Source: Candidatus Zambryskibacteria bacterium RIFCSPHIGHO2_01_FULL_46_25 (lineage in GTDB: Bacteria > Patescibacteriota > Minisyncoccia > Phycocordibacterales > Zambryskibacteraceae). Taken from it: a stretch of DNA of 64,000 nucleotides. Made by a program: the position numbers and the translations under genes. Each line of letters begins with the position of its first letter. Position 1 is the first letter of the stretch. The notes under the pieces were generated by a model. It was not told where the DNA came from and made no database searches. It worked only from the letters and a program-made list of their open reading frames with translations. This document shows, in pieces, positions 5,596 through 53,889 of the stretch. The DNA is taken from NCBI GenBank assembly GCA_001825155.1, contig MHVH01000005.1, positions 70,413 to 134,412 of the forward strand, given 5' to 3'.

Positions 5596-6171
5596 TTAGA
5601 AGTTGAACCTGGCTCCGATGACTCCCTTGTCGTCGCCGACGGCGTACGTTCCCCAGAACGAGACCTTGCCGAATTTCTTCTCGATATAGGGCCCTGTTCC
5701 GAGAAAACGCGTGCTGTTGACGCCGACGAAGAAGGTCTTCGTGACTTCGAAGGTAGCGAGATGGCGAAACCAGTATCCGCTTCCGCCGTGTTCGTGAATC
5801 GAGAGATAGGACCAGCGCCCTTTCCCGACCCAGAAACTCACCGATCCTCGGAGCGGGTTCTCGTCAGTCTCGATGCCGAGACTGCCCGACAACTCCATCC
5901 ACCCAGCTGGCGCGAACGTGAGTCCAGCATGTCCCTCGCTCCAGCCCTTCGAGCTCAGCGACCAGACCGTCCAGCCAAGCTTGCCCTTGATCGGACCCTT
6001 GGCGTAGATGTCGACCTGGGGAGTCGTGCTGTCGCTGATCGTGTTGTACGACTCGACGAAACCGGTCGTCTGCGCGCTCGCCGTACAGGCGAGCGCGAGG
6101 AGCGAAATGATCGCGGCGAGGACGATGAGGATTTTCACCTCGAGGACCCTGTCTCTGTTGATTTTCTGCAT
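5596..6171 (-). CDS. Secreted beta-barrel-like protein (OmpW/OmpA-like small OMP?) encoded by a high-GC3 foreign-looking gene
   Basis: The start is moved to MQKINRD, which has a GGAGG SD 4 nt upstream; the track's start at 6198 would sit inside the promoter. It has a signal peptide ending ASA-QT, alternating hydrophobic strands, and ends in aromatic ...GARFNF. GC3 is strongly biased, unlike neighbouring genes. Confidence 0.5.
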   Translation of the reverse strand: MQKINRDRVLEVKILIVLAAIISLLALACTASAQTTGFVESYNTISDSTTPQVDIYAKGPIKGKLGWTVWSLSSKGWSEGHAGLTFAPAGWMELSGSLGIETDENPLRGSVSFWVGKGRWSYLSIHEHGGSGYWFRHLATFEVTKTFFVGVNSTRFLGTGPYIEKKFGKVSFWGTYAVGDDKGVIGARFNF

Positions 6172-6207
6172 TGCTCCTCCTTGTGGAGCGAAAAACACTC
6201 TCTTCCT

Positions 6208-6236
6208 ATCTTAGCACAATATGAATATCTTGTCAA
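6208..6236 (-). promoter_or_regulatory. Extended -10 promoter, TTGACAAGAT-N13-TGCTAAGAT family copy 1
   Basis: On the minus strand: TTGACA, 17 bp spacer ending in TGC, then TAAGAT. 22 of 29 positions match the copies at ~18170-18198 and ~18581-18609. Confidence 0.5.
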
Positions 6237-6249
6237 TCCCTGCGGGATT

Positions 6250-6313
6250 GCTTCAGGTTCGCTCGGGCTCTGTGTAAGCAAGCTCCCACATTCCCTCGCT
6301 GCCTGAAGTCAAG
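6250..6313. repeat. 64-nt conserved intergenic element, copy A, immediately 3' of gyrB
   Basis: GCTTCAGGTTCGCTCGGGCTCTGTGTAAGCAAGCTCCCACATTCCCTCGCTGCCTGAAGTCAAG matches 29836..29899 at 61 of 64 positions. Its ends form a CTTCAGG/CCTGAAG inverted repeat. Confidence 0.6.
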
Positions 6314-6321
6314 CACAAGAA

Positions 6322-8289
6322 CTACACATCCAAAACGGCCTTCTTGGCATTTGATTGGATGAAAGATTTGCGGCTGGGCACGTCGGAGCCCATGAGGATG
6401 TCGAAGATGCGGTCCGCTTCGCGGGCGTCCTCCACCTTGACCTGCTTTAGAATCCTTTTTGCCGGGTCCATGGTCGTCTCCCAGAGTTCGTCCGAATTCA
6501 TTTCTCCCAAGCCTTTGTATCGCTGAATATCCCCTGCCTCTTCTTTCCCGACAATCTTTATTTTCTCCTCATCGGAGTAAGCGAAGTACGAATTCTTGCC
6601 CATCTTGATTTTATATAGCGGTGGCTGGGCGATGTAAACATGTCCGGCGTCAATAAGTGGACGGAAGAAGCGGTAAAGCAGGGTAAGAAGAAGGGTGCGG
6701 ATATGCGCGCCGTCAACATCGGCATCAGTGGCAATAATTATCTTGTGGTATCGGAGTTTCGAAATATCAAATGTGTCCCCTATCGCCGTGCCGAAAGCGA
6801 CGACCAGATTTTTGATTTGCTCGGAAGCGAGCATCTTGTCGAGGCGGGCGCGTTCTATATTTAAAATTTTCCCGCGCAAAGGAAGGATGGCTTGTATGCG
6901 ACGATCCCGACCCATCTTGGCCGTGCCACCGGCGGAATCTCCCTCGACAATAAATATTTCCGACTCCTCCGCCGAGCGGCTCTGGCAATCCGCAAGCTTG
7001 CCGGGGAGCGTCATGCCCTCGAGCGCGCCTTTGCGAAGCACGGAGTCCTTGGCGGCTTTGGCGGCCTTCCTCGCTTTCAAGGCTAGAACCACTTTGTTGA
7101 TGATAGATTTCGCGTCGTCCGGATTCTCCTCGAGGAACTGGCTAAAGGCTTCGCCGAAGACGGTCGTAACCATAGCCTGAGCCTCAACGGAACCAAGCTT
7201 CGCCTTGGTCTGACCTTCGAACTGGATTTCGCGCAGTTTGACCGAGAGCACGGCCGTGAGTCCTTCCAGCACGTCGTCGCCGGTGAAATTATCTTCCTTC
7301 TCGCCTACGAGATTATTCTTCCTCGCATAAGTATTAAGAGTGCGGGTAAGAGCCGTTTTGAAGCCGGTAACGTGCGTGCCACCTTCGGCGGTATAGATGT
7401 TATTGGCGAAGGGCAAGAGACGCGATGAGATATCCTCAACGTACTGCAAGGCGACCTCGACCACTTCGTAATCATTGCCGTTCGCCTTCTTTTCAACGTA
7501 GAAAATATTGCGATGCATCGGCTTCAAGTGCTCGTTCTCGAAGCGCACGAGCGAGACGAGCCCGCCCTCGAAATAGAATGAGGTTGAAGGAATGTCGAGA
7601 CCCAATTCTCTTATATAGAAAACATTTTCGTCATCCACTTTCGCTAGATTGCGGGCATCCAGCACCGAGATTCTCAAACCGCGCACGAGGTAGGCCTGCT
7701 GGCGCATGTGAGAGACAATAGTGTCGTAGTTGAAGTTGATGTCCGGGAAGATCTCTTTGTCCGGTTCGAAAGTGATGATGGTACCGGTCTTGTCCGACTT
7801 AGCAATTTTCTTCACAGCACTTTTCTTCTTGCCCTTGCTGTATTCCTGGATATATACGCCGCCATCACGATGCACAACAGCCTTGCAATAAACAGAAAGA
7901 GCGTTGACCACCGAGGCACCGACGCCGTGGAGTCCGCCGGAAATCTTGTAGCCATCGCCGCCGAATTTGCCCCCGGCGTGGAGCGTCGTCATGATAGTCT
8001 CAAGCGCGGAAACCTTCGTCTGTTTGTGAATGTCTACCGGAATGCCTCGACCGTTGTCTACCACACGAACTCTGTTGTTGGGAAGAAGAACGATTTCAAT
8101 GTCATTGGCGAAGCCGCCCATAGCCTCGTCGCGGGAGTTGTCGAAGATTTCCGTAACAAGGTGCTGGAGGCCGTCGGGACCGGTCGTGCCGATGTACATG
8201 CCGGGGCGCTTCCTGACTGGTTCCAAACCTTCTAGGACGGTAATAGATTCAGCGCTATAGCTGCTTGTTTTAGACTTCTTTTCTGCCAT
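6322..8289 (-). CDS. gyrB: DNA gyrase subunit B
   Basis: GHKL ATPase, Toprim and C-terminal domains are all recognisable (e.g. EGDSAGG, PLRGKILN). The start is trimmed to MAEKKSKTSSY...; the track ORF extends upstream to 8364 through a non-homologous leader. Confidence 0.9.
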   Translation of the reverse strand: MAEKKSKTSSYSAESITVLEGLEPVRKRPGMYIGTTGPDGLQHLVTEIFDNSRDEAMGGFANDIEIVLLPNNRVRVVDNGRGIPVDIHKQTKVSALETIMTTLHAGGKFGGDGYKISGGLHGVGASVVNALSVYCKAVVHRDGGVYIQEYSKGKKKSAVKKIAKSDKTGTIITFEPDKEIFPDINFNYDTIVSHMRQQAYLVRGLRISVLDARNLAKVDDENVFYIRELGLDIPSTSFYFEGGLVSLVRFENEHLKPMHRNIFYVEKKANGNDYEVVEVALQYVEDISSRLLPFANNIYTAEGGTHVTGFKTALTRTLNTYARKNNLVGEKEDNFTGDDVLEGLTAVLSVKLREIQFEGQTKAKLGSVEAQAMVTTVFGEAFSQFLEENPDDAKSIINKVVLALKARKAAKAAKDSVLRKGALEGMTLPGKLADCQSRSAEESEIFIVEGDSAGGTAKMGRDRRIQAILPLRGKILNIERARLDKMLASEQIKNLVVAFGTAIGDTFDISKLRYHKIIIATDADVDGAHIRTLLLTLLYRFFRPLIDAGHVYIAQPPLYKIKMGKNSYFAYSDEEKIKIVGKEEAGDIQRYKGLGEMNSDELWETTMDPAKRILKQVKVEDAREADRIFDILMGSDVPSRKSFIQSNAKKAVLDV

Positions 8290-8345
8290 AAATTTATACC
8301 CTATTTTATCATAAACGAGGCTAAAAACCAAGAGATTTGGGGATA

Positions 8346-8525
8346 TGAAAAAGCCCCGCGACAAGCAGCGAGGCCTTGTGATTTGGGGGTTGTTTCCGGA
8401 GAAGGTCCGGCCGAGTCTATGCCCTTTGTGTGGTTTGTCTTTACCGACAATCTTGTCGGCTAGTTTTCCTTGGGGGGCGGTGAGCTCAGCGTTCGTCTAA
8501 GTCCGGAAACAACCCGTTGCGGAAC
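8346..8525 (-). ncRNA. Candidate 6S-like (SsrS-like) small RNA of ~180 nt
   Basis: On the minus strand: TTGCGC, 17 bp spacer, TGC-TATTGT promoter at ~8532-8560. The 5' and 3' ends pair (GGGUUGUUUCCGGA / UCCGGAAACAACCC). There is an apical 7-bp hairpin, CCGACAA-GA-UUGUCGG, and an asymmetric internal region. An intrinsic terminator (GCCTCGC...GCGGGGC then TTTTT) sits ~60 nt before the gyrB start. Class assignment is inference. Confidence 0.3.
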
Positions 8526-11719: not shown

Positions 11720-12157
11720 TTACTTACCTATTATCGTTCGATTCTTGATGTATTTATCCATTCTCCATTTCCGGCCCTTTCCTCGGTTTAGATTTTTATA
11801 AAAAGGCGTGAGAGCGTGGCAATTCGGGCAGATTAATCTAAGATTCTCCTCTTTGTTGTTTTCAGAATTCCCATCCACATGATCAATCTCTAGCGGCACG
11901 ACTCCTGTGGTGGGGTGTTTCTCATTCCATCCACAAACACAGCATTTGTTGTTAAACTTTTTAACCAAGTAGATTTTTAAGTGTTTAGAAAAGTTTCTTG
12001 CGGTTATACCAATATTTCCATCTACCTCTCCTTTCTGCCAAGCACTTACCCATTTTAAATGCTGGTAATTCATTTGGCATTTAATGGAGCAAAATTTTAT
12101 GCGGTGGCGTTTTACAAGAAGAATGTTGCAACCCAAGCAAAATCTCTTTGCTTTCAT
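11720..12157 (-). CDS. HNH endonuclease with an N-terminal zinc ribbon
   Basis: 145 aa with a CxxC...CxxxC ribbon. It has an HNH core, EIDHVDGNSENNKEENLRLICPNCH. It is AT-rich (~35% GC) and sits directly downstream of tRNA-Thr. Confidence 0.75.
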   Translation of the reverse strand: MKAKRFCLGCNILLVKRHRIKFCSIKCQMNYQHLKWVSAWQKGEVDGNIGITARNFSKHLKIYLVKKFNNKCCVCGWNEKHPTTGVVPLEIDHVDGNSENNKEENLRLICPNCHALTPFYKNLNRGKGRKWRMDKYIKNRTIIGK

Positions 12158-13262: not shown

Positions 13263-13983
13263 TTTGTTCTTTTTGTTCTTTGCCTTTATTGTAAGATTTT
13301 ACCATTTCATTCAATACGTACGCGATGCTCTGCCTCGATGCATCGTTGCCCGGTATGGCGTAGTCCAGTTCAAAGAGATTGGTATCGGAGCCGGCCAGAC
13401 CGACGACGGGCACGCGGATTTTCTTCGCTTCCGCCACGGCGATATTTTCTTTCTTCGGGTCTATGACAATAAGGAATTTCGGCAGTGATTTCAGGTTTGA
13501 AAGTCCGGCGAAGTAGAGTTCGAGCTTGGCGATTTCTCGGTCGATGAGCAGGCGCTCCTTCTTGGTATATTTGGAAAGTTCGCCCTTCTCTCTTTGCGAA
13601 GTTAATTCTTCGAGTCTAGCGATACGCTTCTTGATTTCCGGGAAGTTGGTAAGGGTACCGCCAATCCAGCGACCGGCTACATACGGCATTTCGAGTTCTC
13701 GGCCAGCCTTCTCTATGGCCTCGCGAGCCTCAGATTTGCCGCCCACAAAGAGGCCCATGGCGCCGAGCTTCCCCTGGCTTTCGACGAAAGAGAGTGCTTT
13801 CGCAAGTTCTTTAGAAGTCTTCTCAAGGTCGAAAATCTCTATATTACTCTTGGCGCCGAAGATGAAAGGTTTGGCCGAAGGGTGTCGGCGAGCCTTAACG
13901 AAGCCGAAGTGCGCTCCAACGGAAAAAAGAGCGTCCACAACGCTTTTTGTTCCCGTGTCTTTATCCGAATTTTTAACAATCAT
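13228..13983 (-). CDS. rpsB: 30S ribosomal protein S2
   Basis: 251 aa with conserved S2 blocks (FGAHFGF, GRWIGGTLTNF, VPVVGLAGSDTN). Confidence 0.9.
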   Translation of the reverse strand: MIVKNSDKDTGTKSVVDALFSVGAHFGFVKARRHPSAKPFIFGAKSNIEIFDLEKTSKELAKALSFVESQGKLGAMGLFVGGKSEAREAIEKAGRELEMPYVAGRWIGGTLTNFPEIKKRIARLEELTSQREKGELSKYTKKERLLIDREIAKLELYFAGLSNLKSLPKFLIVIDPKKENIAVAEAKKIRVPVVGLAGSDTNLFELDYAIPGNDASRQSIAYVLNEMVKSYNKGKEQKEQNDSNNGTNQTA

Positions 13984-14004
13984 CAGAGCGATACTTTAAC
14001 AAAT

Positions 14005-14877
14005 TTAGTCCACGGAGGCAAATTCCCGGAGTATGGGCTCCATTTCCCCCTTCATTATTTTCTCTATATTGTGCCAGCTTTTCTTGATGCGGTGGTCGGT
14101 GATGCGGTCTTGGAGAATGTTGTAGGTGCGGATTTTTTCCGAGCGGTCCGCGGTGCCTATCTGACTTTTCCTGTTCGCGGAGTACTTGGCCGCCTCCTCC
14201 TCTTCCTTGAGCCGTTCAAGTTTGGCGGTAAGGATGGTCATGGCTCTTTCCCTGTTCTTAAGCTGGCTTCTCTCCGCGGTAGAGCGCACGTCTATGCCCG
14301 TCGGTTTATGGATAATGCGCACGGCGGTTTCCACTTTGTTCACATTTTGCCCGCCGGCGCCGCCTGAGCGGGATGTTTCTATCTCGAGGTCTGTTGGTTT
14401 TATTTCAACAGTGGTTTTCTTCCTCACCGGCAAGATAGCAACGGAAGCGGTTGAAGTATGGACCCGGCCCATCTTCTCGGTATTCGGCACTCGCTGGACG
14501 CGATGCACGCCGGTCTCGAATCGGAGCTTCTTGTAAACATCCTTGCCGCGAATCTCAAACGCCGCTTCCTTGTAGCCACCCAAAGGGCTTTCGGATGTAT
14601 ACAGAGGCGACACGCCCCATTTTTGGAATCCGGCATACAAGGTATACATTTCGGCGAGTTCCTGAGCGAAGAGAGCCGCCTCTTCTCCTCCGGCGCCCGC
14701 CCGAACCTCGAGGATTACTTCGTTCGGAAACGTTTCGTCGGAGCTTTCCGGTACGGCAAGAAGAATCCTATCCATCTCGGAGAGAATGAGCTGTTTCGAT
14801 TCTTCGTCCTGCAATTCCAAATACGTCTTTGCCATGTAGGCTGTCTTTGGGTTACTTTTATATTTTTCGATATCCAT
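14005..14877 (-). CDS. prfA: Peptide chain release factor 1-like, N-terminally short, with a PNT tripeptide
   Basis: GGQ motif ([19 protein letters not shown]). An RF1-type C-terminus ([24 protein letters not shown]). The codon-recognition segment reads [17 protein letters not shown]. At 290 aa it lacks most of domain 1. Confidence 0.75.
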
Positions 14878-15234: not shown

Positions 15235-15633
15235 TTACGAATTTGATCGAATGACGCGAATAGGTTTCAGGTATTTATTTCGAAAATTGGCGATAATGCC
15301 AAGTTTTAGTTTCCCGGCTACCAAGTACCTTTGAGTCTGGATATAATCCAACTTACTTATCAAAGGCTTTGCTTTCAGCTCGATCAACAACTGGTTATTT
15401 ATAACAAAATCCGCCTTATTTGTAAAGCGATTGTCGATATTCTCTAGTGGTAGCGGACTTTCACGCTTGTATGAAATATCTGACTCTATGAGTAATTGTT
15501 CCAGAGCTTCGGCATATTGTTTCTCTTTACAATAGCGTCCAAGAGAATTGTGAATCTCAAAAAGCAAGCCAGTTATTTTATACGAAAGCTCCGGATAAAT
15601 AACTTTCTCGGATACTTTTACATTAGATGCCAT
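15235..15633 (-). CDS. GxxExxY-family protein (PD-(D/E)xK nuclease fold)
   Basis: [13 protein letters not shown]...[19 protein letters not shown]...[15 protein letters not shown] matches the family's blocks (IIGxAIEVHKxLG / YEEAL / DLLVEDKVILELK). Confidence 0.65.
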
Positions 15634-18131: not shown

Positions 18132-18169
18132 AAATCCTCCTCGAACAGCGACTGCTGTTCTCTGTTTTT

Positions 18170-18198
18170 ATCCTAGCATACTATATATATCTTGTCAA
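18170..18198 (-). promoter_or_regulatory. Extended -10 promoter, family copy 2 (TTGACAAGAT...TGCTAGGAT)
   Basis: See the copy at 6208..6236. It lies directly downstream of the terminator of the next cassette. Confidence 0.5.
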
Positions 18199-18560: not shown

Positions 18561-18580
18561 GTGTGGCACCTCTACTAATA

Positions 18581-18609
18581 ATCTTAGCATAATATACAAA
18601 TCTTGTCAA
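18581..18609 (-). promoter_or_regulatory. Extended -10 promoter, family copy 3 (TTGACAAGAT...TGCTAAGAT)
   Basis: 22 of 29 positions match the other two copies. Confidence 0.5.
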
Positions 18610-26017: not shown

Positions 26018-26442
26018 TACTTAGATTCTAGCACATCGCTTTCTCCGGCGTTGAGCTCGAGGACGTATTTTACCGCCCGCGGTGGATAAAAGACTTGAGG
26101 ATAAGTATCGGGCGAGACGCTCTTCTCGACGCCTATTATGCCGAAGTTTTCGTCCAGCCAGACTATGTCTATTGGGAAATTCATGTCCTTCATCCAGAAA
26201 CCGTGAAGTCCCGATTTCTCGAAGATGAAGAGAAGCCCCGTCCTCGCCGCGAGCGCTTCTCTGCCCGAGAGACCGCGCATTCTCTCCAGGTCCGAATCGG
26301 CAATCTCGACTTGGATTTCCGTATTCGCAATTACTATAACCCCCTCTCGTATCTCCCCCTTAGCAGGGGGAGAAGTGAAAAACGCGTAAAATGACCAGGC
26401 GATAATCGCGACTCCCAGTATCAAAAAGAATTTATCCCGCAT
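26017..26442 (-). CDS. DUF192 (COG1430) family protein
   Basis: 141 aa with an N-terminal anchor and conserved DUF192 blocks (MRGLSGR, GFWMKDMNFPIDIVWLD). Confidence 0.65.
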   Translation of the reverse strand: MRDKFFLILGVAIIAWSFYAFFTSPPAKGEIREGVIVIANTEIQVEIADSDLERMRGLSGREALAARTGLLFIFEKSGLHGFWMKDMNFPIDIVWLDENFGIIGVEKSVSPDTYPQVFYPPRAVKYVLELNAGESDVLESK

Positions 26443-26443
26443 A

Positions 26444-26478
26444 ATCCAAGTATAGCAAAACCCCGCCGAAGCGGGGTT
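26444..26478 (-). terminator. Intrinsic terminator after the RRM-protein gene
   Basis: A perfect AAAACCCCGC-cgaa-GCGGGGTTTT hairpin. Confidence 0.65.
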
Positions 26479-26510
26479 TTGCTTGTGTAACTTCCGCCGA
26501 AGCGGATTGA

Positions 26511-26804
26511 TTACATCGGTCGGCGATTCATACCGCCGCCATTGCCATTGCGAGGCTCGAGCGGACGCGCGACATTGACGGTGAGTTTCCTGCCCTCGAA
26601 GTCCTGGCCATTGAACATGTCAATCGCCTTCTGAGCTTCCTCTTCGCTAGACATTTCTACGAAGCCGAAACCCTTGGACCTTCCGGTCATGCGGTCAATG
26701 ATAATTGCCGCGGAAACGACGTTTCCAGCCTTCGAGAAAGCTTCTGTCATAGTAGCTTCGGTCGAAGTGTAAGGAATACCGCCAACATATAACTTGGTTG
26801 TCAT
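26511..26804 (-). CDS. RRM-type RNA-binding protein (glycine-rich tail)
   Basis: RNP2 (LYVGGIPY) and RNP1 (KGFGFVEM) motifs. It is preceded by an extended -10 promoter (TGTGATATAAT) and a ~110-nt structured 5' UTR. Confidence 0.8.
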   Translation of the reverse strand: MTTKLYVGGIPYTSTEATMTEAFSKAGNVVSAAIIIDRMTGRSKGFGFVEMSSEEEAQKAIDMFNGQDFEGRKLTVNVARPLEPRNGNGGGMNRRPM

Positions 26805-29336: not shown

Positions 29337-29389
29337 ATGATTTATTTAATTATTAAAATCATTTTAACACATCTAAAAAGATAGAAAAG

Positions 29390-29788
29390 AAAAAGGGTGG
29401 AGGCTTCAATTGCTAGCCTCCACCCTTACGAACACGGGCTCTGCGTACCCTTTGTCGGGGAATCTCTAGCGGAGCAGTTGCCACGGGCCTTGCTTAGGCG
29501 TTCGGATGCCATGCCTCGCGCTCAAGGCGGGAGGTGCTTACTGGAACATCACTGTTGCCAATCGGCGCTGGGCTGGCCGGTCTACACCGGCCTTTTTCAA
29601 ACACCTCGATTTTGGTCGCGGCGGCGCATCACGAGGATGCGTCGCAGCCACCACCGCTCGAGGTCAGCGGTTTAACGAACGACGAGCACGGAACGTCTCG
29701 GAATCTTCTTTGCTGGGTTCTCGAAAGGAACCCCGCTTAGGTAAATCCCGATGAGAACGACCTCAATCCGGACCCCCTTTCTTTAGCC
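29390..29788 (-). ncRNA. GC-rich structured non-coding RNA (~400 nt) of unknown class
   Basis: On the minus strand: TTGACA, 17 bp spacer, TATGAT promoter at ~29796-29824. An intrinsic terminator, GGGTGGAGGC-N9-GCCTCCACCC then TTTTT, sits at ~29395-29426. There is no ORF of 60 aa or more on the transcribed strand, and no GC3 bias. Several internal hairpins are visible. Confidence 0.35.
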
Positions 29789-29835
29789 TGTATTTATCAT
29801 ACACCCAAACCTGTTTTTTGTCAATGCTTCGCATC

Positions 29836-29899
29836 GCTTCAGGTTCGTTCGGGTTCTGTGTGAGCAAGCTCCCACATTCCCTCGCTGCCTGAAGTCAAG
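29836..29899. repeat. 64-nt conserved intergenic element, copy B, immediately 3' of groEL
   Basis: 61 of 64 positions match copy A at 6250..6313. As with copy A, a short palindrome and then a -35 TTGACA follow it. Confidence 0.6.
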
Positions 29900-29904
29900 T
29901 TCTA

Positions 29905-31572
29905 TTAATAATCCATTCCCCCGTGGGAGTGCGGTAAATCTGGAAAAGGCTTCGCCTTTTCTGGCTCATCCGCTATGGCGACCTCTGTAGTGAGAAGGAT
30001 GGCGACGGCTGAGGCGGCATTCTCAAGCGCCACTCTCGCGACTTTTACCGGGTCGATAATCCCCTCTTCGAACATGTCGGTTACAAACATATCCGTAAGC
30101 GCGTTGTAGCCGGAGTTGGCTTGTCCCTTCATCACTTCATTCAAAACTACTCCATCTTCCTTGCCGGCATTCCTCGCGATTTGGCGCAGAGGTTCCTTGA
30201 GCGCCTCCACCACGGCCATGTAGCCCGCGGCAAACTCTGCCGCCTCCGCGTTCTCGGGAGCGAGTTTGGATTCCTTGGACTCCTTATACTTCGCCTCAAT
30301 TTTCTTTGAAACTTTGGCATAAGCACTGCCGCCACCAGCGACAACTCCCTCGGCAATGGCGGCCTTGGTGGCATTGACGGCATCCTCAATCTTCAATTTC
30401 AAATACTTCATCTCCGTTTCTGTCGCGGCGCCGACCTTGATGACAGCCACACCGCCGGTGAGCTTGCCAATGCGCTCCTTAAGTTTCTCAATATCGAACT
30501 TGGAAACTGAGTTTCCAAGTTGGGCGCGGAGGCTCTCGACTCTCGCAACAATCTCGGCCTTCTTGCCTTTGCCACCTACTATAATCGTAGAGTCCTTCGT
30601 GGAAACCACTCTCGACGCGCGACCGAGCATATTGAATTCCGCCTTTTCGAAAGTGAGACCGACATCTTCCGAAACAACTTTGGCACCAACGGTAGCCGCA
30701 ATGTCCGCCAGCAATTCCTTCTTCTTGTCGCCGTAGCCGGGAGCCTTAATCGCAAGCACATTGAAAGAGCCTCGCAACTTGTTTAAAACAAATGTGGTCA
30801 ACGCTTCCCCATCAACATCTTCGGCGATTATTACAAGGTCTTTCTTATCGCTCGCGGCAAGCTTCTCGAGCAAGGGTAAAATATCCTTGATGACCGAAAT
30901 TTTCCTGTCAGTAATAAGAATGGCCGGGTCCCGATACTCGGCTTCCATCCTCTCGGCATTGGTAATCATATAAGCTGAGATATAGCCCTTGTCGAACTCG
31001 AGCCCTTCGACAATTTCCGAATCAATGCCCATAGACTGGGACTCCTCGACCGTAACCACGCCGTCCTTGCCAATCTTCTTTATGGTATTAGCGATGATTG
31101 TGCCTATCTCTTCCGACTCGGCGGAGATTGTCGCCACTTGCCTCACTTCCGCATCGGCTTTGATGGGCTTCGCCATCTTCTTCAAAGCGTCTATGGCATC
31201 GGCAGCCGCGGCCTCGATACCTCTCCTTATGCCCATGGAATTTGTCCCCGAGGAAGACTTCTTGAATCCCGCTTCGACGAGCGCCTGGGTCAATACAACC
31301 GATGTGGTCGTACCGTCACCGGCGGCGTCATTGGTCTTCGTCGCCACCTCCTTCACAATCTCGGCGCCCATGTTCTCGAACTTGTCGGCAAGCGTTATTT
31401 CCTTGGCAATGGTTACACCATCATTGGTAATAGTCGGCGCGCCATAGCCCTTGTCGAGAACGACGTTTCTGCCTCTCGGACCAATGGTAATCCTCACCGC
31501 GTCAGCAACCGCATCCACTCCGCGCTTAAGCGCCTCCCTGGCATCCTGATTAAAAAGTATTTTCTTTGCCAT
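29905..31572 (-). CDS. groL: Chaperonin GroEL (divergent C-terminus)
   Basis: 555 aa with AAGDGTTT and other GroEL blocks. Confidence 0.9.
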   Translation of the reverse strand: MAKKILFNQDAREALKRGVDAVADAVRITIGPRGRNVVLDKGYGAPTITNDGVTIAKEITLADKFENMGAEIVKEVATKTNDAAGDGTTTSVVLTQALVEAGFKKSSSGTNSMGIRRGIEAAAADAIDALKKMAKPIKADAEVRQVATISAESEEIGTIIANTIKKIGKDGVVTVEESQSMGIDSEIVEGLEFDKGYISAYMITNAERMEAEYRDPAILITDRKISVIKDILPLLEKLAASDKKDLVIIAEDVDGEALTTFVLNKLRGSFNVLAIKAPGYGDKKKELLADIAATVGAKVVSEDVGLTFEKAEFNMLGRASRVVSTKDSTIIVGGKGKKAEIVARVESLRAQLGNSVSKFDIEKLKERIGKLTGGVAVIKVGAATETEMKYLKLKIEDAVNATKAAIAEGVVAGGGSAYAKVSKKIEAKYKESKESKLAPENAEAAEFAAGYMAVVEALKEPLRQIARNAGKEDGVVLNEVMKGQANSGYNALTDMFVTDMFEEGIIDPVKVARVALENAASAVAILLTTEVAIADEPEKAKPFPDLPHSHGGMDY

Positions 31573-31590
31573 ACTATTTACTATCTACTG

Positions 31591-31887
31591 TTACTTAATA
31601 ACTGCCAATACATTCTCTTCTTTAATAAGATAGAATTCCTCGCCATCCAGCTCAATCTCGTCGTAAGAATATTTGGAGAAAAAGACGACATCGCCCGCCT
31701 TCACCTTCTTGCCCTCGCCCACGGCAACCACTTTTCCATGGGCGGATTTCTCATTGACGACAGCGTCGGGGAGAATAATTCCGTAGGAAGGCTTCTTACC
31801 CTTGAGCTCCTCGGCGGTAAACGGCTTGACCAACACCCTGTCTCCTATAGGAATAATTTTGCCTTTTTTTACTGGTTTTTTCTGCAT
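31591..31887 (-). CDS. groS: Co-chaperonin GroES
   Basis: 98 aa including PIGDRVLVK and a mobile loop. Confidence 0.9.
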   Translation of the reverse strand: MQKKPVKKGKIIPIGDRVLVKPFTAEELKGKKPSYGIILPDAVVNEKSAHGKVVAVGEGKKVKAGDVVFFSKYSYDEIELDGEEFYLIKEENVLAVIK

Positions 31888-40791: not shown

Positions 40792-40883
40792 CTCGACCTG
40801 ATTCAACTGAAGGGCGGCGCGAGGAGATACTCCTCCGCCGCCTTTTCTCATTCCCTTTTATTTTCTACGCAAAAACCAACATA

Positions 40884-40920
40884 CATAATAAAAACGCTAT
40901 AGCGGAATTATTATGTATAT
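40884..40920. repeat. Palindromic 37-bp element flanking PaaX-like gene 1 (3' side)
   Basis: CATAATAAAAACGCTATAGCGGAATTATTATGTATAT. 34 of 37 positions match the copy at 41519..41555. Confidence 0.55.
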
Positions 40921-40928
40921 GAGGAAAG

Positions 40929-41498
40929 TTAATTTATCAAATCGAATTCCATGCGCAGATATTTATCATTCTCAATCTGGTCGGCGATTATGTAGAGCAA
41001 GTCGCGACCGATTCCGTAATCAGTTTTCAGCAAACCGATGACATCTTCGCAGTCATAAGGATAAACCCAGACACTATCTTGCAAGTGGTAAAATCCGGCT
41101 TGCTTGAATATTTCCCTCACCTCATCCCTAATCGCCTTCTTTCTTTCCGGAATATCGAAAATTATTACCCGCCACTTTTTATCCCACTTCTTCGGCTTTT
41201 TCAATTTAAAATCTTCTCTTCTCCAGCGTTCCAAGATTTCCTTACCATCTTTAGCCAACTCATAGTGTCCGTGCTCGAATTTAATTAACCCCTTGCTTCT
41301 CAGACGGCTTGCCGTTGATCTTATTACTTCGTTTTTCCGCGGAGAAGAAGGTAGGTCAAGATCAAGCAGAATATTCAAAACTCTAGGTACGAGAAGCGAA
41401 GCGCCCAGCCGGCCACCCGAAGCGACAGTGAGAAGTATTGCTTCTTGTATTTCCGTTCGCCTGATAATTTTCTTATTTTCTTCTTCCAGTTTCCCCAT
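40929..41498 (-). CDS. PaaX-like regulator (winged-helix N-terminus plus a PaaX_C/Cas2-fold C-terminal domain), paralog 1
   Basis: WDKKWRVIIFDIPERKKAIRDEVREIFKQAGFYHLQDSVWVYPYD matches the PaaX C-terminal signature. It is ~55% identical to 53323..53889. Confidence 0.55.
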   Translation of the reverse strand: MGKLEEENKKIIRRTEIQEAILLTVASGGRLGASLLVPRVLNILLDLDLPSSPRKNEVIRSTASRLRSKGLIKFEHGHYELAKDGKEILERWRREDFKLKKPKKWDKKWRVIIFDIPERKKAIRDEVREIFKQAGFYHLQDSVWVYPYDCEDVIGLLKTDYGIGRDLLYIIADQIENDKYLRMEFDLIN

Positions 41499-41518
41499 AC
41501 TTACATTATAATCAACTA

Positions 41519-41555
41519 CATAATAAAAACGCTATAGCGTTTTTATTATGTATAT
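41519..41555. repeat. Palindromic 37-bp element flanking PaaX-like gene 1 (5' side); candidate operator
   Basis: CATAATAAAAACGC-TATA-GCGTTTTTATTATG is an almost perfect palindrome. It lies ~20 bp upstream of the ATG. Confidence 0.55.
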
Positions 41556-41653
41556 ATGATTTGTGTCTCTTTTGCGAGATTTTGACATTGGTCAGACAAA
41601 ACGAAAAGCCGCCTCTAGACAGAGCGGCTTTTCTTGTGGTTTGCAGAGTTATG

Positions 41654-45427: not shown

Positions 45428-45940
45428 ATGATTGCAACAATTTTTCCACTTCTTGGCATCATGGCATTCCTTCTCCTTTGGATCCACTCGATGATGGGGG
45501 TCTTCGAGCCATGGCTAAGACCTCGGATGCCTTTCGACGCCTTCGTCCACTACACGGCGCTCATCATCCTCTTTTGCATTGTCCTCCATCCCCTTCTGCT
45601 CCTCATACTCATCGAGTTCAATTTCGCACTACTCTTCTCCGGCAATCCACTGGCAATATCTCTGGGTGTTGCCGGCTTCCTCCTCCTCATCACATACGAC
45701 ATTGGCAAGGCGCTCAAACGTAGGGAATTCTTCACCCGACACTGGAACACCATATTGCTCATAAGCACAATCGGATTTATCCTTACTTTCTTTCACTCCC
45801 TCATGCTCGGGAGCCACTTGCAGTCCGGCCCCTTGCGCGCGCTCTGGATTTTTTTCGGCACGACCGCCATCCTCGCCACCATTTATACGTATGGGGTGAA
45901 GAGGTTAAGATATAATCAAAACAATGAAAAAAGATTTTGA
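45428..45940 (+). CDS. Hypothetical polytopic membrane protein
   Basis: ORF with ~5 TM. Confidence 0.4.
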   Translation: MIATIFPLLGIMAFLLLWIHSMMGVFEPWLRPRMPFDAFVHYTALIILFCIVLHPLLLLILIEFNFALLFSGNPLAISLGVAGFLLLITYDIGKALKRREFFTRHWNTILLISTIGFILTFFHSLMLGSHLQSGPLRALWIFFGTTAILATIYTYGVKRLRYNQNNEKRF

Positions 45941-46337
45941 TAATTGGAATAGGCGGAAGAAGCAGCTCCACAATAGCGAAGTGATAATCGATGCTCATCC
46001 TCGTGAAGTTTGGTGGTGCTCATTCGGTGTAAACATCGGAGCTGAGACTGATGGCGGAGACAAAAATTTTGAAAGGCCTTGTTTGATTCTAAAAGTTTAT
46101 AACCGAGAAACCATGTTGGCCCTGCCTATTACTGGCAAAGCTAAGCCAGATGATTTTCATTACAAAATTATAGTTACTAGGAAAAAGCCTAACTCTGAAG
46201 AACTAGAGAAAAGAGATGCCTGGGTAAAGCTTACTCAGTCACGAGTGATCAGTAATAAAAGATTGCTTCGTAAAGTAGATATGATTCCTGAAGCGGAGTT
46301 TATTGAAATTAGAAACAGATTTCAAAAGTTCGTGTAA
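45924..46337 (+). CDS. MazF/PemK-like toxin-fold protein (orphan; no antitoxin recognised)
   Basis: REVWWCSFGVNIGAETDGG...RPCLIL resembles the PemK/MazF N-terminal strands. AT-rich. Confidence 0.4.
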   Translation: MKKDFDNWNRRKKQLHNSEVIIDAHPREVWWCSFGVNIGAETDGGDKNFERPCLILKVYNRETMLALPITGKAKPDDFHYKIIVTRKKPNSEELEKRDAWVKLTQSRVISNKRLLRKVDMIPEAEFIEIRNRFQKFV

Positions 46338-53288: not shown

Positions 53289-53324
53289 ACGTTATAATAT
53301 TACGAATGTAAGAAAGTAACGTAT
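53289..53324. repeat. Palindromic 36-bp element upstream of PaaX-like gene 2 (contains TATAAT and abuts the ATG)
   Basis: ACGTTATAATATTACGAATGTAAGAAAGTAACGTAT. A similar copy lies at ~53929..53964 (ACGTTATTTTCTTACGAATGTAGGATAATAACGTAT). Confidence 0.5.
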
Positions 53325-53889
53325 GGGTAACCTAGAGAATAGAATCAAGAAAAAACGCAGGAAAGAGAATTTGCAGAAAATAATTCTCGCCTCTGTCGCG
53401 GCCGCAGGCGTATTGAGTATTGGGCTTCTTGCCCCAAACGTTCTCAAGGCGATGGATAAATTAGGTATATTACCCAACCCGCGCCGGAGAGAATACATTT
53501 CTTCCTCTGGTTCCAAATTGGTAAAAAGAGGGTTGCTAAAATTCGAGGATGGGCATTATCAGCTGACAAGTCAAGGCGAGAAACTTCTGAGACGTTGGGA
53601 GTTGGCTGATTTTAAGTTAAAGAGGCCTAAGAGATGGGACAAGAAATGGAGGCTGATCGTATACGATATTGCCGAGAGAGGAAAAGGTAAAATACGAAGG
53701 CAAATATTTGAGTTGTTTAAGATCGCCGGTTTTTACAGATTGCAAAATAGCATCTGGGTTTACCCTTATGATTGTGAGGATATAATCGGATTGCTTAAGA
53801 CTGACTTTGGCGTAGGGAGAGAAATTTTATACATAATCGCCGACGAGATAGAGAATGATAAATATCTCCGTGATTATTTTGAAATTTAG
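53323..53889 (+). CDS. PaaX-like regulator, paralog 2
   Basis: WDKKWRLIVYDIAERGKGKIRRQIFELFKIAGFYRLQNSIWVYPYD. Confidence 0.55.
   Translation: MGNLENRIKKKRRKENLQKIILASVAAAGVLSIGLLAPNVLKAMDKLGILPNPRRREYISSSGSKLVKRGLLKFEDGHYQLTSQGEKLLRRWELADFKLKRPKRWDKKWRLIVYDIAERGKGKIRRQIFELFKIAGFYRLQNSIWVYPYDCEDIIGLLKTDFGVGREILYIIADEIENDKYLRDYFEI

Follow-up and report, generated by a model that had tools for sequence, protein, structure and literature searches.

A putative promoter-targeting mobile element of 74-76 bp in Zambryskibacteria, built on a covarying hairpin

Here we describe a family of short structured repeats, two copies of which lie just past gyrB and groEL in a 64,000-nucleotide (nt) stretch of the genome of Candidatus Zambryskibacteria bacterium RIFCSPHIGHO2_01_FULL_46_25 (assembly GCA_001825155.1, contig MHVH01000005.1, positions 70,413 to 134,412 of the forward strand), the whole of which is referred to below as the window. 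We show that the repeat belongs to a multi-copy family with a covarying hairpin, that it is present or absent at orthologous sites, and that it stands in a fixed register and orientation to promoters. The reading we favour, at a probability of about 0.62, is that of a small non-autonomous mobile element of 74-76 bp which inserts site-specifically and in one orientation. Such an element would integrate in a single orientation at TT(G)AC, mostly between the TTGAC and the final A of the -35 hexamer of a strong sigma-70-type promoter. The left copy of the motif would keep whatever had overlapped it, for example an upstream stop codon, and the right copy would restore a -35 box correctly spaced, at 17 nt, from the -10. 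With the motif on both sides after insertion, the left overlap and the -35 box both survive, so that insertion would be nearly neutral and the element able to persist in a very compact genome.

Genomes of the Candidate Phyla Radiation (CPR, or Patescibacteria) are tiny and gene-dense, and to our knowledge they appear otherwise almost free of transposons. Landing in a -35 box and yet restoring it would offer a route to near-harmless insertion where intergenic DNA is scarce. Small non-autonomous elements, whether miniature inverted-repeat transposable elements (MITEs) or structured repeats, are not described for CPR/Patescibacteria in the literature that we searched. The family is previously undescribed and is unusual in its architecture and in its targeting and restoring of the -35 box; in kind it is a small non-autonomous insertion. 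Annotation pipelines could misread such units as motifs of 3' untranslated regions (3' UTRs), as small RNAs or as terminators.

A repeat comparison within the window finds a direct repeat of 67 nt, 94% identical, at 6247-6313 and 29833-29899, which agrees with the initial annotation of a shared element behind gyrB and groEL in the same orientation relative to both. A pattern of the 58-nt core matches these two sites only in the 64 kb, where the shuffle expectation is 0. Both copies lie on the minus strand, copy 1 starting 14 nt past the stop of gyrB (6322-8364) and copy 2 starting 11 nt past that of groEL (29905-31572; groES at 31591-31887). Along this strand each reads in the same order: CTTGA, a 58-nt imperfect hairpin, a short hairpin and a near-consensus promoter. 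The termini CTTCAGG/CCTGAAG, originally picked out as an inverted repeat, do close the 58-nt hairpin (hereafter the big hairpin), which in the two copies folds with a minimum free energy (MFE) of -23 to -30 kcal/mol and z-scores of about -2.3 to -2.5. The short palindromes are exactly as first described. The TTGACA -35 box begins within each of them, sharing its final TTG, and a promoter scan calls both promoters. The features of the two copies are as follows (aa, amino acids; ORF, open reading frame).

6232..6307, minus strand: putative inserted segment of copy 1, 76 bp, reading TTCAGG…CCTGAAG-CAATCCCGCAGGGA-TTGAC and delimited by comparison with the promoter of locus L030
6251..6308, minus strand: conserved 58-nt imperfect big hairpin of copy 1, scoring 90.8 bits with the covariance model
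6234..6250, minus strand: short variable hairpin of copy 1, CAATCCC-GCA-GGGATTG, whose final TTG opens the -35 box
6308..6312, minus strand: left direct repeat TTGAC of copy 1, read as the original -35 half-site and now 9 nt past the gyrB stop
6236 to 6208, minus strand: promoter of copy 1, TTGACA-17-TAAGAT, TG-extended, 10/12 matches, with the right direct repeat as its -35 box; it serves the 200-aa ORF at 5596-6198(-)
29820..29893, minus strand: putative inserted segment of copy 2, 74 bp, reading TTCAGG…CCTGAAG-CGATGCGAAGCA-TTGAC, with boundaries drawn by analogy from copy 1 and from the filled and empty pairs described below
29837..29894, minus strand: conserved 58-nt hairpin of copy 2, scoring 87.3 bits with the covariance model
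29822..29836, minus strand: short hairpin of copy 2, CGATGC-GAA-GCATTG, with a G·T wobble; a near-same hairpin occurs in L015, an unrelated locus
29894..29898, minus strand: left direct repeat TTGAC of copy 2, 6 nt past the groEL stop
29796..29824, minus strand: promoter of copy 2, TTGACA-17-TATGAT, 11/12 matches, with the right direct repeat as its -35 box; it serves the RNA unit of about 400 nt at 29388-29790(-)

Three comparisons of filled with empty sites each reveal a clean insertion of 74-76 bp. In the first and clearest, the orthologue of the 200-aa gene in L030 lies in the same neighbourhood, upstream of mraZ-rsmH, behind an uninterrupted promoter, TTCTTATACTTGACAAATAGATAATATTATGCTAGGAT (beginning TTCTTATACTTGACAAATAG…). 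Deleting the 76 bp at 6232-6307 from the window yields TTCTTGTGCTTGACAAGATATTCATATTGTGCTAAGAT, which aligns across the junction with the L030 promoter, and the alignment takes in the 5' flank TTCTT(G/A)T(G/A)CTTGACAA; an empty-site junction at the gyrB site would read GTGCTTGACAAGATATTC. In the second, L018 reads …GAGATTAC-element-…CCTTAC-ATTGAG, with TTAC on both sides of an element placed between the stop codon of an RRM-protein gene and the native 3'-UTR hairpin; the window and L022-L025 (five genomes) carry a single TTACAT at the RRM gene stop where L018 is filled. In the third, the element separates rsmH from ftsL in L020. The empty counterparts of the last two lie in the window.

26509..26516, plus strand: empty target site GATTACAT, filled in L018, with one TTAC only, which overlaps the RRM-protein gene's stop codon
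2680..2690, minus strand: empty site at which the rsmH stop and an ftsL-like start stand 1 nt apart, the same junction being filled in L020

The spacer between groEL and LemA, moreover, is just 20-55 nt in relatives, against the element and a non-coding RNA (ncRNA) in the window. Together the pairs show an insertion that is gained or lost at orthologous sites, with one copy of the motif when empty and two when filled, and the early suggestion of an insertion-type module is supported by the L030, L018 and L020 comparisons. A reading of the small hairpins past the RRM stop as traces of excision was rejected: this is a native 3'-UTR hairpin, orthologous between the genomes, and L018 retains it beside the insert. 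A long target duplication in L020 was likewise rejected, the similarity of the flanks being that of Lys/Arg-rich codons at gene ends. As an observation on the RRM-gene 3' UTR itself, a small hairpin of variable sequence follows the stop (ATGTAA) in 5 of the 6 genomes compared (window 26440-26513, L022-L025); it sometimes pairs the stop codon with the downstream TTACAT, and it precedes the real terminator.

Searching related genomes brought the family to 17 copies, so that the two of the window are not the only ones; they occupy about 15 genomic contexts and come from Zambryskibacteria metagenomes and metagenome-assembled genomes (MAGs). A 20-mer scan of one genome per GTDB species gave 1 match, in another Zambryskiibacteriota MAG (L009), and a gapped-pattern scan of Joint Genome Institute (JGI) metagenomes gave 12 loci, one of which (L016) is the gyrB copy of the window itself. 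With these copies as its basis, a covariance model added 3 that exact patterns had missed (L005/L022, L019b and L021b). Phage and plasmid collections returned 0 BLAST matches and viral contigs 0 matches in two pattern scans, and a phage or plasmid origin was rejected on these grounds. As far as sampled, the family is confined to Zambryskibacteria (Parcubacteria, CPR), and its spread is patchy: there are 2 copies in the 64 kb of the window, 1 in the syntenic groEL region of L022, and none in 65 kb of syntenic groEL DNA from three other relatives (four 21-kb regions were examined, of which only that of L022 was positive). A dispersed family with presence and absence at orthologous sites does not fit an ordinary conserved 3' UTR, an outcome that the initial annotation had allowed for. 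The GroEL protein of the window is identical to that of 'Parcubacteria group bacterium GW2011_GWB1_49_7' and is found also in GCA_001823915.1, GCA_001824055.1 and a JGI metagenome, the last three being base-for-base identical to the window over the groEL region; the next-nearest GroEL proteins, 83-87% identical, are labelled Candidatus Zambryskibacteria.

The flanks of the element are highly regular. TT(G)AC stands immediately 5' of it in 15 of 17 copies: TTGAC is found on both sides in 9, TTGCC on the left with TTGAC on the right in 2, and YTAC on both sides in 4, the remaining 2 being degenerate, and no copy mixes TTGAC with YTAC. The direct repeats are 5 nt long (TTGAC, 9 exact) or 3-4 nt (YTAC, whose first base often differs), and they are always the motif and not arbitrary sequence. 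The YTAC copies have no big-hairpin variant in common, and flank type therefore follows the site and not the lineage of the element. To the right, TTGAC is followed 16-17 nt downstream by TAnnnT in 11 of 11 copies, compared with 15 among the 119 TTGAC of the whole window, and the small hairpin lies on the promoter side in all 11 TTGAC copies, that is, in a single orientation. The -35 box is integral to the arrangement, as first proposed, the right repeat being the -35 in each of these 11. For unculturable organisms the element offers a marker of real promoters, its 11 TTGAC-flanked copies all pinpointing TTGAC(A/T)-17-TAnnnT.

The neighbouring genes have little in common. Downstream lie rpoB, rplU, genes for small membrane proteins or lipoproteins, an ncRNA and, directly behind one YTAC copy, clpP. 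Where the flanks are YTAC, the element is antisense in the 3' UTR of a convergent gene. Upstream neighbours range over a GGDEF-protein gene, rsmH, gene ends, divergent genes and canonical terminators. The idea that the module targets the 3' ends of highly expressed genes consequently fails: the site is TTGAC or YTAC, usually the -35 hexamer, and the upstream neighbours are varied. The same small membrane-protein gene has an element at its 3' side in three genomes, with opposite relative orientations and different small hairpins in L009 and L013 on the one hand and L015 on the other, which suggests repeated independent insertions beside this gene.

A position directly upstream of the -35 box, fixed in 11 copies, would also be expected of a double-stranded DNA regulatory site, an UP-element-like or activator-binding module boosting the downstream promoter, which was among the first suggestions made for the repeat. 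We hold this to be very improbable. Compensatory base changes in the stems, documented below, would be pointless for duplex binding and therefore indicate single-strand folding rather than a duplex site; at 52-60% GC the copies are not A/T-rich; 4-6 of them, four at the lowest count, have no downstream promoter; and orthologous promoters do without the element. Three minus-strand promoters of the window (18160-18198, 18571-18609 and 6198-6236) have a common consensus, GCTTGACAAGAT…T(A/G)TGCTA(A/G)GAT, which is probably the local strong-promoter consensus, with a TG-extended -10 TAAGAT, and not a matter of mobility.

Across 16 copies of the big hairpin, 98.5% of pair cells are standard and 6 of the 18 pairs are changed on both sides, while slid-partner controls pair in just 23-46% of cells and 0 of 500 shuffles reach the observed score. 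Copy L019b, which was not selected by the search pattern, shows compensatory changes in each of its three helices, the outer stem reading CTTCGGG/CCCGAAG, the second helix GAG/CTC and the inner one GTAG/CATAC. On a by-eye reading of the alignment, the apical CUUG loop covaries as well, from C·G to U·A. The unpaired stretches CAGCGA, AAU, AGAG and GAGCGAA are nearly invariant, and a recognising partner is therefore implied; the invariant internal loops of the 58-nt hairpin must have something that binds them, and the identity of that partner would lead to a new transposition system or to a new RNA-protein module.

The second, short hairpin lies 0-1 nt past the big one in 16 of 16 tabulated copies, and its stem sequences are unrelated between copies, so that the palindrome is kept in structure and not in sequence, much as the two window copies had suggested. 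Same or near-same small hairpins occur at unrelated loci (L005 and L017, window copy 2 and L015, L012 and L021b), so that the two hairpins are inherited as a unit. Its derivation from the target was rejected, the stems being unrelated to either flank and identical ones being found at unrelated loci, as was the view of it as a general promoter feature: the other promoters of the window have no abutting hairpin. A hammerhead-like reading of CUGAAG…GACA was dropped on a core that misfits by eye, and Rfam concurs. At the gathering threshold Rfam 15 finds only 3 tRNAs in the window, and at E ≤ 10 nothing relevant around either copy; ARAGORN run on the window likewise returns only 3 tRNAs.

Stems that covary around strongly conserved unpaired nucleotides (CAGCGA, AAU, AGAG, GAGCGAA) would also be expected of a structured RNA selected for a function in the host, such as an insulator, a terminator that lacks a U-tract, an RNase III-type processing site or a stabiliser of mRNA 3' ends. 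Such an element would sit between the end of a gene and the next promoter; its mobility may lie far in the past, or the host may have domesticated it, and a host RNA function may coexist with mobility. In favour of this explanation, conservation of the element exceeds that of the flanking coding DNA, and both window copies, L005, L011, L012, L014, L017 and L020 have a co-directional stop codon within about 20 nt upstream and no other terminator. Our own tally of G·U 6 versus C·A 2 slightly favours the drawn strand, sense to the upstream gene, but is not significant; these counts were rejected as a guide to the functional strand. The copies in L009, L013 and L018, however, are antisense in the 3' UTRs of convergent genes, several others stand behind a canonical terminator that already ends the upstream gene, and the same intergenic sites in relatives carry neither the element nor a replacement structure. 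A host RNA would moreover leave the flanking direct repeats and the exact -35 register unexplained, and no Rfam family matched. The terminator first proposed is not borne out: there is no U-tract (the tail reads GACA… or ACAU…), and the terminator scan called neither window copy. We regard a purely host-functional RNA as an unlikely explanation, if one that deserves serious weight.

Several further points do weigh against a mobile element. The search pattern fixed the outer stem and part of the second helix in 12 copies, so that the invariance there is partly a matter of ascertainment. Copy L021b (L021 86-216, plus strand) has a 77-nt insertion that forms two extra hairpins in the GGG^AAU internal loop with the outer helices kept; a structure-preserving expansion of this kind is more typical of a functional RNA, and it counts for host function. 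No polymorphism was seen within a species, L001-L003 and L016 being identical to the window. Between hosts, the identity of the big hairpin is 93-98% where that of orthologous genes is only 70-80%, which needs either recent spread between hosts or strong constraint, and constraint fits a host function equally well. No transposase or recombinase gene was found near any copy or among the roughly 40 of 77 window ORFs that were scanned, and none of the 17 copies is an autonomous version with a gene between the big and small hairpins. Finally, the geometry is not that of the insertion sequence (IS) IS608 (PMC5934647): the left motif leaves no room for a guide tetranucleotide before the hairpin foot.

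The initial annotation had further noted that both window promoters read into DNA of high GC content, and they do: GC is 0.585 in the 200-aa ORF and 0.574 in the ncRNA, versus 0.482 in the window. Among its suggestions was the end of a mobile cassette; in this explanation the repeat would be the 5' boundary or attachment site of horizontally acquired GC-rich units, each complete with promoter, payload and terminator, and recombination at TTGAC would bring in or capture the cargo. GC-rich, lineage-specific transcription units do follow 4 of the 17 copies: over the 400 nt downstream GC is 0.605 for copy 1, 0.575 for copy 2 and 0.63 for L015, and over the 236 nt sampled downstream in L005/L022 it is 0.67, with 0.46-0.51 in the surrounding loci. 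Between groEL and LemA, the relatives examined (L004, L005, L007 and L022-L025) lack the element and ncRNA of the window, and L022 carries a different element and GC-rich unit at a place where about 25 nt stand in the window. Of the window ncRNA and the L022 unit, each is absent from the other's genome at the syntenic position.

Most copies, however, front core or ordinary genes (rpoB, rplU) or sit inside the dcw operon, no common right-hand boundary was seen, and other variable ORFs lie in the same hotspot without an element. The 200-aa gene is itself native. It lies at window 5596-6198(-) with a GC content of 58.5%; its product has a signal-peptide-like N-terminus and no Pfam match, and belongs to a Parcubacteria-only family with 17 homologues from Parcubacteria-type metagenomes, each behind its own strong promoter; the element is absent from 6 of 6 loci that carry such homologues. 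Its description as a foreign gene resembling an outer membrane protein (OMP) is accordingly not evident, given also the L030 orthologue in the same neighbourhood. With that orthologue's promoter intact and element-free, and with rpoB, rplU and clpP among the downstream genes, the end of a cargo cassette is quite an unlikely role for the repeat.

Two of the downstream units merit description in their own right. The window unit at 29388-29790(-), about 400 nt long and 57% GC, has a consensus promoter to itself, an intrinsic terminator (with its hairpin at 29390-29427), no ORF, no Rfam or ARAGORN match and an MFE z-score of -4.0; it is a candidate structured RNA, unclassified, and its identification as RNase P RNA or transfer-messenger RNA (tmRNA) was rejected for want of support from Rfam or ARAGORN. 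The L022 unit (13880-14180, about 280 nt, 67% GC), downstream of that genome's element, comprises a promoter, a 38-aa ORF with an AGGAG ribosome-binding site (RBS) and a terminator, and lies between a GGDEF gene and tRNA-Ser, just upstream of the latter. It was rejected as a homologue of the window ncRNA, the two having no BLAST similarity.

If the repeat is a mobile element, its movement would probably be in trans, by way of a folded single-stranded intermediate, and the candidate mover would be an enzyme of the HUH/Y1 type, as in IS200/IS605 and in the repetitive extragenic palindromes (REPs) with their associated tyrosine transposases (RAYTs). An HUH/Y1-type rather than a DDE enzyme is suggested by the lack of terminal inverted repeats, the short asymmetric TTAC-like target, the repeats of 3-5 nt and the hairpins. 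The ends of the segment are non-complementary, the left being TTCAGGCAGCG… and the right …(variable hairpin)TT(G)AC, and the sole inverted repeat is internal to the 58-nt hairpin.

The element resembles IS200/IS605 and palindrome-associated transposable elements (PATEs) in having hairpins at or near both ends and no terminal inverted repeats. Like IS200/IS605 it is inserted orientation-specifically 3' of a short asymmetric motif (here YTAC or TTGAC; IS608 inserts 3' of TTAC and ISDra2 3' of TTGAT, PMC5934647), and its hairpins, conserved by covariation, fit recognition as a folded single strand. In IS608, however, insertion does not duplicate the target, and a different cleavage motif, TCAA, serves the right end, whereas here the motif stands on both sides. 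IS608 has guide tetranucleotides 5' of the hairpin feet and a spacer between cleavage site and hairpin (PMC5934647); the motif here abuts the big hairpin (0 nt) and overlaps the 3' arm of the small one, with no guide-like conserved spacer. The two hairpins are also unlike each other, and tnpA and tnpB were not found among the scanned ORFs of the window, nor was any PF01797-type match. We would therefore liken the element to IS200/IS605 in its working and do not file it as a member of that family.

As short dispersed imperfect palindromes in intergenic DNA, often just past genes, REPs and their REPIN pairs are alike too, and REPs are moved in trans by one HUH enzyme. The 'GTAG' head of REPs is resembled by GTAG/GTAA beside the hairpin, on the reverse strand of the 4 YTAC copies only. 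REPs are 20-40 nt long, number tens to hundreds of copies and often occur clustered or as inverted pairs, whereas the element is 74-76 nt with about 2 copies per 64 kb; REPs have neither flanking direct repeats nor promoter targeting, and no RAYT gene was seen in the scanned part of the window. With MITEs such as Correia of Neisseria and the enterobacterial ERIC/IRU the family has in common that it is dispersed, multi-copy and polymorphic in presence and absence (17 copies, about 15 contexts), and that its members are small non-autonomous insertions with short direct repeats; Correia and ERIC/IRU likewise fold into long transcript hairpins, and their ends can provide or restore promoter hexamers. 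Those MITEs, however, have terminal inverted repeats, insert in either orientation and are flanked by a TA duplication of fixed length that a DDE transposase makes; here terminal inverted repeats are lacking, the orientation is single and the repeat is 3-5 nt of a specific motif. Integron attC sites are comparable as single-strand structured sites at gene boundaries in which structure matters more than sequence, as in the small hairpin. They differ in their RYYYAAC/GTTRRRY cores, absent from both hairpins in most copies here, in serving promoterless cassettes, where the genes downstream of the element have their own promoters, and in being variable in sequence throughout, where the 58-nt hairpin is about 93% conserved.

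A more speculative version of the mobile-element reading, which we would not expect to hold but consider plausible enough to state, is a promoter-homing element whose folded single strand recognises the -35 hexamer itself, integrates strand-specifically and rebuilds the promoter; its mover would be either a host enzyme or one not related to any known transposase. The 5' arm of the small hairpin always begins with CAA, which is able to pair with the TTG of TTGAC. Small GC-rich units that bear promoters, for example the window ncRNA or the mini-gene of L022, could possibly have been captured by the same exchange at TTGAC.

The window holds other features of note. Paralogous PaaX-like genes with a Cas2-like middle domain occur at 40872-41562, 40929-41498(-) and 53323-53889(+), with another beside groES in L004; those of the window have a 155-nt inverted repeat in common, and one of them is flanked by a palindromic repeat of 39-51 nt (TACATAATAAAAACGCTATAGCG…). 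Small genes that stand alone and encode nucleases or toxins lie at 11720-12157(-), 15235-15633(-) and 45924-46337(+): an HNH endonuclease beside tRNA-Thr, a PD-(D/E)XK nuclease with ribosomal and translation genes on either side, and a MazF/PemK toxin.

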